A stretch of 64,000 bases of DNA, from assembly GCA_964016885.1 (NCBI GenBank), contig OZ024742.1:320168001-320232000 (forward strand). Reading direction: 5' to 3'. The stretch is from Eledone cirrhosa (lineage: Eukaryota). Below are positions 18,801 through 60,683 of the stretch, one piece after another. A program made the translations under genes and the position numbers. Under the pieces are notes generated by a model. That model had not been told where the DNA came from. It ran no database searches and saw nothing but the letters and a program-made list of their open reading frames with translations. The stretch's first letter is position 1; each line of letters starts with the position of its first letter.

Positions 18801-21800
18801 GTTTGCGAATTCATGTTTTAAATGACATTTTACGTTACTGCTATATTTATAGCGTTGTTTCTCCTTTCCTTCTTTCAACCTTCTTGAATGTCGGCGCTGT
18901 CAACTTCAATATTCTATTTCAACCTAGACAAATAGACAAGGATGCATATACGTGATCTGATGACTTGCTAGAAATAGTAACATGATATATTTAAAACCAC
19001 ACACACGGTAAGGTGTGTGTATGAGAAAATGTCTTGAGAAAAAAAACACATTGTATGTAGTTTTATATAATATTGCCTTATAAAATACAGATTAAAAAAG
19101 CCGGATAATGTGAAGAAGAATGCATTTGATTATAGACTTGCTCGATCTGGGCCTACTTGGGAGTTAAACAGCATAATATAATATATATTTTAATCGATGG
19201 ATGGCATCTATACCCTAAGCCCCATACTTTAATCTGACACGACCCCTAAACACATACATGCATAAACATATCTCAATCAGTGACAATTTCAAATCATATA
19301 TAGAATGTTTTTAATCTATAAGCAAGCAACCCTAGCCAAGTTCTGTTTGCAGTTTTCAGAAATATATATATATATTCAATATTCAATTTAAGTGAAAAAA
19401 TTACATTTTATAGCTCAAATCACTTTATTATATGTAGTGTTTCTATGCTGATAATTTATTAAGCGGCTTTCGAAAATGCCGGTCGGGTCAGACCGTTGCA
19501 AAGTAAATAATACGACGTCCACTAGGTGATTCTTCGTTGTCGCTCGATCTACTAGAAATAGCAGGCAAATCTCCATCATATCACATCTTGTTGTTTAAAA
19601 AAGGAAAGAAGAAAAGATAAAAAACGGAGGAAAGACTGTGGATACTGTTAGTTCTAGGTACACAATGTCTATATAAAACAATGGCTGAGATGGTCACGAA
19701 TGGAACGCTTCTTAACCGATAAGTCTATTTGATCAACACTGACCAGGGGCTAAACAACGAGTCTTCTTTTTCCTCTACTACTACCACTATTACTACCACC
19801 ACCTGGTTGATTCATTGACGAAAAAACGAAGTAGTAGTAACTTAATCATAACCACAAAAAGTCATGATGTACGCTTACGTAATCTAGTAACGGAAATAAA
19901 GTCGCAGAAATATATTTCGGAGAGAATAAAGTCACAGCGGAAATAAAGTCAATGAAAAACTTCGTTAAATAAATGATTTAAGATGTTTTTTTCTTGTTTT
20001 ATTTTAAGATATTGAATAAAGGTCTCCCCTCTCCCATCGGTGCTAGCACGACTGAGGTTGAGGAGTTCAATTCGTAACCACGTGGCCTCGGGTTCTGTCC
20101 CTCAGTCTGACATATTGGGCAAGTGTCTGCTACTAATAACTTCGGTGGGGTTGACGATTGACCTTGTGAGTGAAATTTCGAAGACAAAAAACTGCTGAAG
20201 CCTGTCATATATATTTGCTCTAGGGTTCTTATATGCTTGATATATATTTATCCTTATCGAGCCCTCTTTGGATTTTAGTCTTCACATTTATTATTATTAC
20301 TATATATATATATATATATATATGCCATACTGTATCAAATCATGTATTATCAGTTAAGACATAACTTAAATTATTAGCTAATTACTTCAAATCTTAATAT
20401 TTATGGTATTCAAATGAAGTGCAACCTTTTTTGACCGTGTACATTTTTTTTCTAGCCAACAAAAATTGTGATTTTTAATGTCTTTATTTCCGTTCACAGA
20501 TTTACAAACTTGCTCAACGAGATTCAATAAACAGCCTTCGAGATTATGGTCTCAGCTAGTTTTAGATTTTTTTAGGCGTGGGGGAAACTATAAAACAAAG
20601 ATTCTCGACATTTTTAATGTGTATAAGATGGGAGAAAGGACAATGAATATATATATATATTAGAAAGAGTCGGGGCCCGACGGCTGAGCTGTTGCTATAC
20701 TCTATTATCCCATGTATCGAGTACTCTGTTTAAAACTGATACCTTATTAAAACGGTTGCTAGTGCATTATTTTAGTTATCTGACCTTCCTTAGGCCCTAA
20801 CTGTCTTGGGCAATTTAAACCTGACGGAGCCCATCATTTTCAAGGCCTGAATACAGCTGATTTCTTCCATCGAAAGAGAGCGGAGGTAAAAGCGGCTGGT
20901 TAAGAACAATCAACCTTAGTCCTGGACTGGTATTTTATTTATCAACTGCAAAAAATGGAAAGTAGATTTCGGCGAGATTTGAACACGGGGTGGAAAGGTC
21001 TAAAGCATAAAAAAAATAAAAAAACTTCTCAATTTAATTCGTCGAGTCCAGGGATTTGCAATTTATATTATTTGAAAATCAAGATGAAAATCCTTTAAAA
21101 TGATGCCGAAGATTTAATGATTGTCTTTGTCTTTAATTATGCATTGGTCTGTCTTAATCGAGCAGACTAAGATGCAAAAGCATTCTAGCTGTGACTAACT
21201 CAACCCAACCCAACCCAACCCGTCTTTCACCCACAGCTCATTTCAAAACGATATTTTCCAACATGTCCTTATTTCTTTTTTTTTTTTTCTTTCTAAAAGA
21301 TGATAAAGTGTGAATTGAGAGAGGGATATTTAGCTGTTATTTCTAGCAGGTCGACTGACCACCTCGATATACTCCCTCATTAGCACATGGAATTCCATTA
21401 ACGTTTATAACACTTGGTTGAGTAAAGGAGCATTTTCTTCATTTGTTCGTTTATCATATTCTTCTTTCAAGAATTATATTTATCGTTTTGTTTTAAAAGT
21501 AATTTTTGTTAATTATCAATCAGCTATTGATTAATTTATTTATGAAATTTTCTTAAGTCCACTCCTGCGTTGATAAGGTAGTAAATGATGGTATTTTATA
21601 TACAAGTTACAATTCCTTAAACTACGCCTACTAAACTACCAACAAAACCACCTGCATCATCATCACCATCATAATAATCATCAGCATCCGCGTCATCGTC
21701 AACAACACAAATCTATCTGCCGGCATCAACAACGATCAAGTAGAACCGGCAGAACCTTATTATTTGACTTTGCCTTTCATCCTTACGGGGTCGATAAAAT

Positions 21801-22391
21801 AAAGTACCAGTAATACACTAGTATTTGCTGACCTTGTGCCAAAAGTAGAAACAATTAAAATTTCTTATCATTTACTCTTTTATCTGTTCCAAGCCATCCG
21901 GTTGAGGCCATGCTGGGGCACCGCCCTTGAAATTTATATAAAAAATAAAGCAATAACATGTACAAACAACTTACATCGATCATTGAATTTAAATATAGAT
22001 TTTAAAAATTGTTTTATTTCATTGACGGAGAGCAAGCTAGGATATATATATATATATATATATATATATTAAAAGGTGAATAGCACATATATAACATAAT
22101 ATAATAGGGGTTTACATGCTATAAATAATATCTACACTACTTTCTTTAAAGTATGAAGTACTATGTCGAATAATGGTTTACTAGTCTCAATTAGTAGCAT
22201 TTTATATCTCTCACGTAACCCATCTCGCCTATTTCTCTCTATATAATATATATACATATACATGATCCTGTGAGTACACAGGTAAAACTCCTAACTAACA
22301 AGACTCATCTCTTCGCCATAATTAAGAATATATATATACAAACACAGCTGATATAGTGTACTTTCTAGTGATAAAAAAAAAAAAATTATAA

Positions 22392-57915: not shown

Positions 57916-57966
57916 AGCTTCCTGATGATTTCTCACGAATGAAACAGTTCTAGTCCTGTAGAAGCT
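57916..57966 (+). ncRNA. Type I hammerhead ribozyme
   Basis: agcttc CTGATGA tTTCtcacGAAt GAAA CAG ttctagtc CTG TA gaagct. All three stems present, GUA triplet. Degenerate relatives at 38001-38052 and 35130-35195. Confidence 0.85.
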
Positions 57967-60683
57967 ATTCTATATTAAAACTTTTATACTCTGCTATGTA
58001 TTGAGTACCTTACATCATATTCGGATGATGAAACTGGGCTATTGAAATATGTATAGTGTTTTCACGAAATTATGAAGTTTCCAGTTCCGACCTTCTGTTG
58101 TTTTTAATAAGTATATATACACACACACACACACACACACACACACACACACACACACACACACACACACACACACACACACACACACACACACACACAC
58201 ACACATATATATATATATATATATATATATATATATATATATATAGAGAGAGAGAGAGAGATAAACCTCTTCTTAGGACATTAGTTGTCCTTAATCTGAC
58301 CTCTGACTGTGACTATTCGGGTTTATATTATTATCCGCGCTTGAAAAGCATGCTGTACTAAGAAGGTTCATTCAAGATTCGTGGCTGGAGTCTCTTGCTT
58401 AAGACAGTAATTGAACCCAATTCTTGACAAGTGCATTATTGACTTCACCGGTATTTGAACTCAACGTAAAGAGTCAGAATAAATATAGCAAAGCATTTTG
58501 TCCGATTCTCTAACGATTCTGATGTGCATCCAATAATGGATTCTGATTTAAATACCAGATCAGCAATTTTGGAAGAGAGCAAATGGGGTAAGTTAGTTAA
58601 ATCGACTCCAAGTACTTTATTTTATCGATGGCAAAGTTAACCTGAACTCAGAACTTAATTGAGCTGAATCTGGATTTGAATGCCGTATAGTGTTGTGTCC
58701 GACGTTCTAACGAGACTGCAACCTCACCGACTTTGAACGTAATTGCACAGAAAATATCGGAAACAAAAATATATAAATAAAGAATCAAATAAATAAATAT
58801 ACTGTATACAAATATAGTTATTAAAAAAACAGAACAGAAAACATTTTTAACTTTGTATAATAGAATAGATCATGATAGAATAGATTATGACAGCCTTTAA
58901 CCGCGATCACGTTGAGATATGTCTATATGATAGAGTTCAAATCCCGCCGGGGTTAACTTTGCCTTTCATCCTTACGGGGTCGATAAAATAAAGCACCAGT
59001 AATGCACTGGGATAATTGCTGGCCTTGTGCCAAAAGTAGAAACAATTATCTATATTGAGAAAGAATTTGCATGAAGAAACTTCATATAAATATCAAGGGA
59101 TGTATGACAAATCATAAGAAAAGGAACTGATTCATATCAGAGCAACGATAGAGGTTAAAACAACCTGTTCACCTCCAATAACGTAGTGACACATTCCCTA
59201 CTCATCAAGGAGACAGTCATGTATCTCCCCCTCTTGTCATTAGCATCAACTGCATACATAGATCCAGACTTGAAGGCTTCAAAATTCCATGGGACTGACT
59301 AAACAATTTACCCTTTTGATATCAACCTACCAGAAACCGTCTTTGGTTCTAAGATTTACAAAAAAAAAAAAAAAAAAAAAGAACCCTAACAAACCGTTCG
59401 TTTTAAAATGTTTATATTATTTTATATTAATCTTTCATTATAATTTTATGTAAGAAACTTTTCCTCAGTTTATAATCCAAACGCCGGCTTAATAACAAGA
59501 AAATCAGTTATTTTACTGAATCCCTCCAAATTTGTTTTTCGGAATTAATTGGAAATCATAGACAGTCTTTTATTAGAAATATGGTAAAGATTAAAAGAAA
59601 AAAAAAATCAATGTAAATTTTAAAATTGCAATATATAATGTCTGCTGCCTGCTTAGCAACAAGTAATGTTGTCAACAAAAAGTAAGAACGATTGAGTAGA
59701 GAGTTATGGTCGTTTCAGTCATGACCATCTTTCCCTTTATTCCAATATAGTGTATCTAAGACAACATTATCCAATATATGCCCCCATTTTCAGGACGGTA
59801 AAGTGTAATTTGAGGAAGATTTGGTTGCTATTTCTCGCATGTCAAGAGACTACGTAGAGACTTCTTCGTTGGCTCGTTATAGATAACATTGAAAGCATTA
59901 CAAAGACAGAATAGAATTTCCAATAAATCATTAATAATAATTTCTTTGAGAGATGAAACCATATAAGATCAAAGAAAGAAATAGCCGACATGCGAATACT
60001 AAATCTTGAGTCTATGTGAATTTCTAGTTTAGTACGGCGAAAGATTTTGATGGTGGCGAAGTGTCAGAATCGTTTGAGCGTCGAATAGAATGTCTTGCAT
60101 TTTACCTTAACTAACAGATTGCTATGCCATACCATGCCATGAGCCTTTAACATCTGACAGAGTCGTTATGGTATTTAAATCTGAAGGAGTCTATCCTCAT
60201 CCAGGTCTGAACATAGCTGATTTTCATTTCTTTCAATGAAAAGCAACAGTAAAGCAGAGCATAATTAAAAACAGTATATCAAAATGTAGTACTGTTTTTA
60301 ATACCGCTTCTGCTTTGCTGTTGCTTTTGATTGCTCTTGTAATTTGCAATATATTAATTGGTATAGTATGAACCTCATCTATGGTATGGAGTTATCTCTT
60401 GTATGTAATACATTTGAAACTTCAAACAATATCTAAACCCCTGAAGATATGAAGATATGTCGAGCGAGGGACAGATACCGCGTATGTATCGTAGTATGGC
60501 CCACCGCTCTACATTGAAACATATGTAGAATACAAATTATGTTTTAAGTATAAATTGGTTATTCACTCTCTATTAATATATATATATATTAATAGAGAGT
60601 GAATAACCAATTTATATGATATGTCCCAAGGCTCTGATACCATCAACACTATAAACACAGCTGGCATATCTAAGAACTGACTA

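Follow-up and report, generated by a model that had tools for sequence, protein, structure and literature searches.

The closest described systems are two groups of Penelope-like elements (PLEs). Members of the Hydra clade, which are EN+ PLEs, have a single RT-EN ORF with a CxCX5C linker, a DKT motif and, in the EN, CxxC and CxH motifs; they occupy (TA)n targets and carry a hammerhead ribozyme, inverted arms and a one-sided tail, which was ascribed to EN resolution (Craig et al. 2021, PMC8557442). The words ‘hairpin’, ‘bulge’, ‘twin’ and ‘initiation’ are absent from the main text of that paper. For PAc (Poseidon, Anolis), the published account describes two internal RT start sites that flank the tail and lie 3′ of the hammerhead, the extension of both target strands in vitro and a predicted dimer, together with a binding motif that is hypothesised and left undefined (Frangieh et al. 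2024, PMC11167929). As described there, PAc resembles the picture proposed below for Hydra-clade PLEs in its two starts flanking the tail, its two extended strands and its predicted dimer. It differs in belonging to another clade; its starts lie within the ORF, in a stem-loop rich in AC, no conserved twin motif is described, and the two strands did not differ in start site in vitro.

We analysed a stretch of 64,000 nucleotides from Eledone cirrhosa (hereafter, the window), in which an earlier note had described a hairpin shared by ‘otherwise unrelated’ repeat families. These families are in fact related: most are truncated, representing the ends of autonomous Hydra-clade PLEs, and they are not independent SINE-like families. 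Such ends are seen in families B, C, D and F, and the Hydra-clade set considered here comprises B and F as hosts and, in part, C, D, G and I. Family B is present as intact 3.54-kb units in loci L311 and L312, with ORFs intact in tandem arrays; the single open frames of 784-786 aa (about 718 aa from Met) encode an RT with a GIY-YIG EN at the C terminus. Family F has a single RT and GIY-YIG EN ORF in L294, an EN is joined to the family D end in L194 and L074, and no ORF was found for family A. The clade was assigned by reading motifs in the translations by eye against published criteria (PMC8557442), which point to Hydra, so that Neptune was dropped as the host-element clade: a CxCX5C linker, DKT for DKG, and CxxC and CxH around the EN E and N, without CCHH; the N-terminal RWK position reads RWR in B and RWI in F. 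Insertions lie in (TA)n, the pLTR has a tail on one side, and the hammerhead is canonical in D, F, G and A, with altered cores in B and C. The families are like the published Hydra elements in ORF form, in the linker, DKT and EN motifs, and in targets, hammerhead, arms and tail, whereas their units are longer, their tails measure about 45-90 nt compared with 30-40 bp, and the ribozyme cores of B and C are non-canonical. Two other candidates were set aside: a non-LTR retrozyme (non-coding short tandem units), because B, C, D and F tie to Hydra ORFs, and Helitron/HINE-type DNA hairpins or tRNA B-box likeness, after the families had been tied to RT-EN ORFs.

The motif is predicted to fold as a bulged stem (Table 1), with a lower stem RCTC/GAGY, a 2-nt 3′ bulge (UN), a covarying upper stem of 2-4 bp and a variable loop of about 2-45 nt. 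All 12 strings cited in the earlier note are at or near the places given for them, the site cited as 50083 spanning 50063-50108 and that at 20217 extending to 20262, and 11 of them share the motif; the exception is 26321, where the core differs. The ‘TT’ said to be retained beside the core is present, but it is the 3′-side bulge beneath a further stem. A descriptor (RCTC, at least two pairs, loop, TN, GAGY) recovers 10 of the 12 sites, and the covariance model gave no match at 35223 or 26321. No match to Rfam 15 was found in the window at the gathering score, the E-value matches being microsatellite look-alikes of miRNA models, and we found no published description of the motif in the literature searched.

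Table 1. Motif copies and associated features in the window
Feature	Position	Strand	Remarks
Family C stem 1, long loop	20217..20262	+	tail-only copy 20207-20303
Stem of diverged B-like family	20699..20722	+	included in building the covariance model; no microsatellite within 125 nt 3′
Lopsided head-to-head insertion	25429-25616		stem 25539..25562 in its long (L) arm
Ribozyme 3′ half beside family B stem 25539..25562	25490-25512
Family B stem 1	25539..25562	+	covariance-model E 0.0042; autonomous Hydra PLE
Family E hairpin resembling the motif but distinct from it	26321..26341	+	5 nt past the family E ribozyme cut; ~200 nt 5′ of, and thus off, the E copy ends (26538-26541, 26595)
Degenerate non-Hydra PLE P1, negative control	32276..33899	-	two 3′ ends
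Family B stem 1	35059..35082	-	L arm 35111-35005; model E 1e-5
Family A variant stem	35224..35245	+	R-Y pair replaced by T-A, the sole such copy among loci examined; homologous place in family A
Inverted short (S) arm of family A copy at 38075..38093	about 37951-38060
Family A stem 1	38075..38093	+	degenerate hammerhead 38008-38046; descriptor and covariance model
Family D stem 1	43619..43637	-	3′ end of autonomous Hydra PLE; degenerate hammerhead 43744-43697
Family C stem 1, fragment	46492..46537	-	found by descriptor
Family C copy ending at site S	47978..48385	-	ends just 5′ of expected stem start; variant hammerhead core 48047-48006
Family B stem 1	49920..49943	-	arm 49980-49900; model E 1.7e-5
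Family C stem 1 (cited as 50083)	50063..50108	+	copy 50000-50169
Family A stem 1	57988..58006	+	type I hammerhead 57922-57960; model E 5e-5

Two checks proposed in the earlier note, against shuffled sequence and for microsatellites downstream, came out in its favour. The window holds 15 descriptor sites compared with 2.7±1.9 in 100 shuffles, and an unbiased 800-kb sample of the genome holds 113 compared with 42.6±5.4 (30 shuffles, maximum 55), so that some 40 of the 113 would be chance matches. A TA or CA microsatellite lies 20-125 nt 3′ of 67 of these 113 sites, compared with 1381 of 8000 random positions. The 2-nt bulge is favoured over other bulge sizes (Fisher p about 1e-16, the copies being non-independent). 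At the family level, covariation in the unselected upper stem reached 24, 29 and 28 of 50, compared with 14.4, 16.3 and 12.9 after shuffling. The R-Y pair reached 27 of 55 compared with 16.2. Beyond the 4-bp lower stem, the outer pairs that had been claimed show no conservation: they fall below the shuffled level (9 compared with 13.8, and 6 with 13.0; n=50), and longer outer stems were rejected. Among 23 anchor-picked stems from other records, the second upper pair was counted 19 times compared with 9.3 (p 0.0002), and two stems have A-T in place of the core T-A pair. Isolated stems fold weakly (z +0.4 to -2.05), and their predicted minima commonly lack the bulged register.

The signal is clade-specific. 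The sense-strand motif is absent from P1, from its relative P2 and from family E, the last of which forms tandem arrays; its absence removed P1 as the candidate mobiliser. The autonomous elements, the earlier note's third check, do carry it: the motif was found in B, C, D and F and in 10 of 13 Hydra loci from other records (E≤0.05), and it recurs 3′ of the ribozyme in the elements of other organisms. Three of six published Hydra consensi have it (Hydra-2_Amil, Hydra-1_Ajap, twice in the latter, and Hydra-2_Ajap); two have no stem and one a mismatched stem. A metagenome scan with a single protein query yielded one locus, and two scans of viral contigs gave one weak match and none, respectively. 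Among sequencing runs, no RNA data set was listed as containing it, and the contigs of two runs yielded pieces only.

Read-through copies have two examples of the motif, separated by about 60-110 nt, in the interval from the hammerhead to the start codon. Copies mostly end 2-7 nt 5′ of stem 1 (site S) or of stem 2 (site L), and all six families tested have two end points. Stem 2 lies directly 3′ of L in B (369 genome matches to the end-plus-RCTC pattern) and C (399), as well as in D, F and I, and was also found in L322, L323, L324, L327, L330 and L331, with the first divergent base at -4 in L322 and L330. The offset from end to stem (-2 to -7) is tighter than the distances to the ribozyme (41-71 nt) and to the ATG, which stem 2 always precedes by 30-87 nt; it spans a range, is blurred by TA microhomology and is bimodal in F. 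Fourteen family C copies end within the AT-rich loop, and in family A the search for a second stem gave 0 and 4 pattern matches, with no clear read-through among them. The two stems differ slightly, in that stem 2 always has G-C below the bulge and C-G above it, and stem 1 mostly U-A above. Among inverted pairs at unselected loci, 55 were LS, four SS and none LL (59 S/L pairs of 66; p 5e-13). Because S arms of up to 3.4 kb lie opposite L arms of 45 nt, S is no snap-back copy of L. Of nine such pairs in family F, six have an L arm whose end lies at, or short of, approximately S. P1, E and P2 copies are two-ended without the motif, so that in other clades two-ended insertion can proceed without it.

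What might the two stems do? Inserted copies mostly terminate 2-7 nt 5′ of one stem or the other, so that each stem probably binds the element RT and fixes a cDNA start immediately 5′ of its own position. The best explanation remains that of the earlier note, in which the PLE RT would recognise a cis-acting signal in the RNA; the covariation, the recurrence in other organisms and the tight link to copy ends now lend it support. A second copy of the signal is not apparent from the window. In the model that we favour, the PLE protein, possibly as a dimer, would hold both stems of one read-through RNA made from tandem units. Of the two nicked strands of a (TA)n target, one would then pair with a short run of UA letters 5′ of stem 1 and the other with such a run 5′ of stem 2, and both cDNAs would extend toward the 5′ end of the RNA and join by microhomology. 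Such twin priming would leave a lopsided head-to-head insertion, with the ‘tail’ and stem 1 in the L arm only, and stem 2 would not be copied into a 3′ end. The one-sided tail would be explained because the protein bound at each stem would prime one target strand just 5′ of that stem. We tentatively propose, as a further possibility, that twin priming is programmed, in that each of two slightly differing bulged stems docks one RT of a dimer 3′ of its start site, so that each target strand is allotted its own fixed internal start.

The junctions are alike whether RT initiates or RNA is cleaved at the same places. It is conceivable, if unlikely, that the stems direct a cut in the RNA a few nucleotides 5′ of each, made either by a host nuclease or by the PLE protein, yielding two RNA 3′ ends that enter ordinary end-primed target-primed reverse transcription (TPRT). 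This would give the same junction pattern, with the stems 3′ of the ends as expected of a cut-site marker; however, the pairing of an S with an L end in each insertion, and the L arms reaching only as far as S, better fit two starts on one uncut RNA, and PAc starts internally on uncut RNA (PMC11167929). We regard as improbable a motif that acts as DNA, with the GIY-YIG endonuclease recognising the donor or an over-long cDNA and trimming the intermediate. EN resolution of the tail has been suggested (PMC8557442), EN cleavage in D. virilis is cited in PMC11167929 as requiring the tail, and the strand comparison of G-U with A-C gave six and four at upper pairs 3-4, favouring neither reading clearly, but the variable loops and the asymmetric bulge are ill-suited to a duplex site, the junctions run straight from copy end to target (TA)n, as priming predicts, and stem 2 would require a cDNA begun further 3′. 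It is distinctly improbable that the stems, as part of a 5′ UTR, have a role in translation, in the packaging of the RNP or in an internal promoter, the ends merely falling in nearby AU-rich stretches: the constant proximity of stem 2 to the ATG and the AT-rich sequence preceding the stems would fit, yet ends lie within about 5 nt of both stems, although the families' other spacings vary by tens of nucleotides, and other AT-rich stretches seldom serve as ends. Chance matches or neutral shared repeat ancestry, which the chance share and the non-independence of copies might suggest, are barely credible, since the flanks do not align, the Hydra-clade proteins are about 35-55% identical to that of family B, the pairs covary and the motif recurs in other organisms.

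The proposed docking of an RT on each stem has parallels elsewhere. In LINE/SINE 3′ stem-loops and R2 RNA elements, a small RNA structure is read by the element protein for template choice; the stems of LINEs are found 5′ of the start and become part of the copy. The analogy to these stem-loops drawn in the earlier note has the wrong geometry: each PLE RNA has two stems, and each of them is found 3′ of the start site that it marks, S copies ending 5′ of stem 1 and L copies 5′ of stem 2. In L1 twin priming, two primers on one RNA give rise to inversions, the second primer not being fixed, whereas here both starts are. In telomerase, the register of TERT on its internal template is set by a protein-bound stem of telomerase RNA, and PLEs have a related RT fold, TERT being the top PDB match to the predicted fold (E 1.3e-8, TM 0.34). 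The telomerase template boundary element, in contrast, sits on the 5′ side of the template, where it brings synthesis to a halt, and it has no evident sequence likeness to the motif.

How PLEs choose their RNA, and why the tail is one-sided, have been open questions since the tail was described. To our knowledge, the sole in vitro PLE study located two starts but left the signal undefined. With a defined motif of ~20 nt that covaries, is present twice, is tied to both ends and occurs in elements from several animal groups, the question becomes testable, and the motif marks Hydra-clade ends for repeat annotation. If the proposed model is true, twin priming would explain the PLE tail, and these elements would carry a portable signal of ~20 nt for internal target-primed reverse transcription by a telomerase-like RT. 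The motif is also relevant to the origin of internal template use by telomerase-like RTs.

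What is the signal that these hairpins share? All 12 hairpin strings cited in the earlier note were located in the window. Comparison of the repeat families (designated A–G and I) showed that the TT next to the TC/GA core is a bulge of 2 nt in the 3′ arm: below it is a lower stem, RCTC/GAGY, and above it an upper stem of 2–4 pairs, often with RCT coming next. A descriptor of this bulged stem recovers 10 of the 12 cited sites; the site at 35223 is a family A copy in which T-A replaces the R-Y pair. The hairpin at 26321, previously counted as a member, belongs to family E; its core differs and some 200 nt separate it from that family's copy ends, and it was therefore left out. 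An Rfam search of the window gave no match at the gathering score. Family E itself (window 25735-26600; L101-L106) is a minimal hammerhead element with tandem arrays on contig C28 and two ends of its own; no ORF was seen in its sequence, which appears retrozyme-like. Also in the window are LINE fragments, an ORF for actin and numerous short repeats; one of the latter, a SINE-like repeat, forms a tandem cluster near 54000 and bears no relation to the stem motif.

Other features of the window
Feature	Position	Remarks
Uninterrupted 334-aa reading frame	11307-12311 (-)	Actin, judged from its sequence
Perfect 546-bp palindrome	22392-22937	TA tract at centre; adjoins zf-RVT LINE fragment 22895-23644
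LINE RT fragments	60788-62611 (+), 33918-34878, 46654-46946	Pfam RVT_1 for 60788-62173 and 33918-34667
Abundant short SINE-like repeat	1384-1605, 4060-4188, 21764-21857, 41568-41762, 53811-54647, 58923-59058	

The motif is commoner than in shuffled sequence and is enriched upstream of microsatellites. In 80 evenly spaced 10-kb stretches, an unbiased sample of this 3.0-Gb animal genome with abundant TA and CA microsatellites, 113 sites were found, against 42.6±5.4 in 30 block shuffles, and a microsatellite lay 20-125 nt downstream of 67/113 sites versus 1381/8000 random positions. When the bulge was altered (0, 1 or 3 nt, or a non-T start), this association was near background (23/133, 14/103, 24/109). 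Because repeat copies are not independent, the 385 descriptor matches over all loci were clustered before pairing statistics, giving 91 clusters, some of them chance or antisense readings, 48 with a downstream microsatellite. When stems were chosen by their anchors alone, Watson-Crick pairing was seen at upper pairs 1, 2 and 3 in 24, 29 and 28 of 50 clusters (14.4, 16.3 and 12.9 after shuffling), and the R-Y pair formed in 27/55 (16.2); upper pair 4 was not significant (18/50 versus 14.3), and the outer pairs beyond the lower stem, earlier described as covarying, showed no conserved pairing in the 50 clusters. Among 31 hand-picked representatives, in which three scored pairs had been selected for pairing, the covariation score was 0.449 against 0.206 shuffled, a value reached in 0 of 500 shuffles; the third upper pair, unselected, was kept in 26. 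Isolated stems have weak predicted folding.

The families carrying the stem had been thought otherwise unrelated. Upstream tracing instead joins F, D, G, C and B to the RT-GIY-YIG ORFs of Penelope-like elements (PLEs). Families B, present as intact 3.54-kb tandem units, and F carry a CxCX5C linker, DKT, CxxC, CxH and (TA)n targets, which in the available portions of Craig et al. 2021 (PMC8557442) mark the Hydra clade and, at the sequence level, point to membership of it. An ORF was sought in family A and not found. On the sense strand the motif is absent from family E, from P1 (the window's other PLE, whose linker is CX4CX2C) and from P2, a relative of P1. Two 3′ ends are also found in the non-Hydra PLEs P1 and P2 (window 32276-32340 (-), 49876-49806; L190, L167), whose tails open with a short conserved word common to both; the reverse complement of this word imitates the TC...TTGA pattern of the earlier note, and the word may act as a start signal particular to that clade. 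Family B forms near-identical 3.54-kb tandem arrays with open ORFs (G000 C1:91476611-91487271, C1:437200339-437210965; L311, L312), and has therefore probably been active recently. In the autonomous families B (L311) and C (window 48047-48006 (-)), the hammerhead cores GAGAAGA and CAGAAGA replace CTGANGA and the stems are kept; the ribozyme may be dispensable there or work differently. Elements of these families are also nested in one another's (TA)n tracts in mixed clusters (window 35000-35260, 49500-50170; L130, L144, L194).

In families A, B, C, D, F and G, copies terminate at two points: S, immediately upstream of the stem, and L, roughly 40-65 nt past it. Head-to-head inverted pairs join one end of each type in 139/157 cases; at loci unselected for family, 55/66 pairs were LS, 4 SS, 7 ended within a stem and none was LL, against about 12 LL expected. 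In family F, S arms of up to 3.4 kb are coupled with L arms of as little as 45 nt, and the opposite arrangement is also present; both ends would therefore be independent starts on the RNA. Of nine F pairs whose S arm is long, six have an L arm that halts at or before about S. Read-through copies of D, F and I have a second stem directly after L, which is also seen in locus L294 and Hydra-1_Ajap. Among the matches listed, it is present in 19/19 family B junctions (369 pattern matches) and clear in 6/8 of family C (399 pattern matches); none clear was found in family A. Stem 2, located 30-87 nt before the first ATG, begins with G and carries C as the first letter of the upper stem in 11/11; in stem 1 that letter is T in 9/14. 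Where copies terminate, divergence begins mostly at a base 2-7 nt upstream of one stem or the other (4 nt for L322 and L330), a position blurred by TA microhomology.

The motif extends to other organisms. In one metagenome contig, whose EN is 37% identical, the stem lies 41 nt beyond the ribozyme. A profile of 113 proteins picked up 14 contigs in bins of bacterial genomes. Of these, 13 are Hydra-like and spread over six records (L321-L333); these animal-type PLEs are probably host DNA contaminating symbiont bins. At E≤0.05, a covariance model built from 30 Eledone cirrhosa stems and locus L291 has hits in 10 of the 13, those in L325 and L333 being antisense to the matched ORF; L330 scores 0.11-0.13, L327 is degenerate, and L321 stops within the ribozyme. 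Among 23 anchor-chosen stems from other organisms' records, including three hand-added locus-strands and a few junk rows, the upper pairs show covariation, and two stems have A-T in place of the core T-A. By eye, in the available part of the Craig 2021 supplement, three of six Hydra consensi carry the exact motif: one from coral and two from sea cucumber, of which one has it in duplicate. The copepod consensus has a mismatched version, and in the remaining two, which stop shortly past the ribozyme, none was seen. As a limited control, six 9-mers gave four other matches in this file, all in Naiad or Chlamys sequences and with no visible partner arm. No description of the motif was found in the openly accessible full text searched, nor in the available portions of Craig 2021, Frangieh 2024, Cervera 2014 (PMC4209133), bioRxiv 10.64898/2026.07.22.740005, PMC3846280, PMC7229834 and PMC13282606.

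How might the stems act? The read-through RNA of a tandem element would carry both stems downstream of the ORF; the PLE protein would bind each, and the nicked (TA)n strand would then pair with the UA letters just 5′ of the stem. One target strand would prime at L and the other at S, and the joined cDNAs would form a lopsided mirror image in which a single arm bears the tail. In the available portions of the biochemistry of PAc, the Poseidon element of Anolis (PMC11167929), internal double starts and extension of both strands are reported and ribozyme cleavage is not needed, the last of which, by analogy, fits the altered hammerhead cores of B and C. The predicted fold of the Hydra protein (pLDDT 92.8) has TERT as its best match, and this modelled likeness confirms kinship, nothing further. 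Conceivably, RNA cut at the same places, instead of the start of reverse transcription, yields the copy ends, and the genomic junctions are compatible with such cutting. The stem is a real, clade-specific, twofold RNA motif tightly tied to both insertion ends of Hydra PLEs, and its predicted function, which we consider probable, would be to position the reverse transcriptase.
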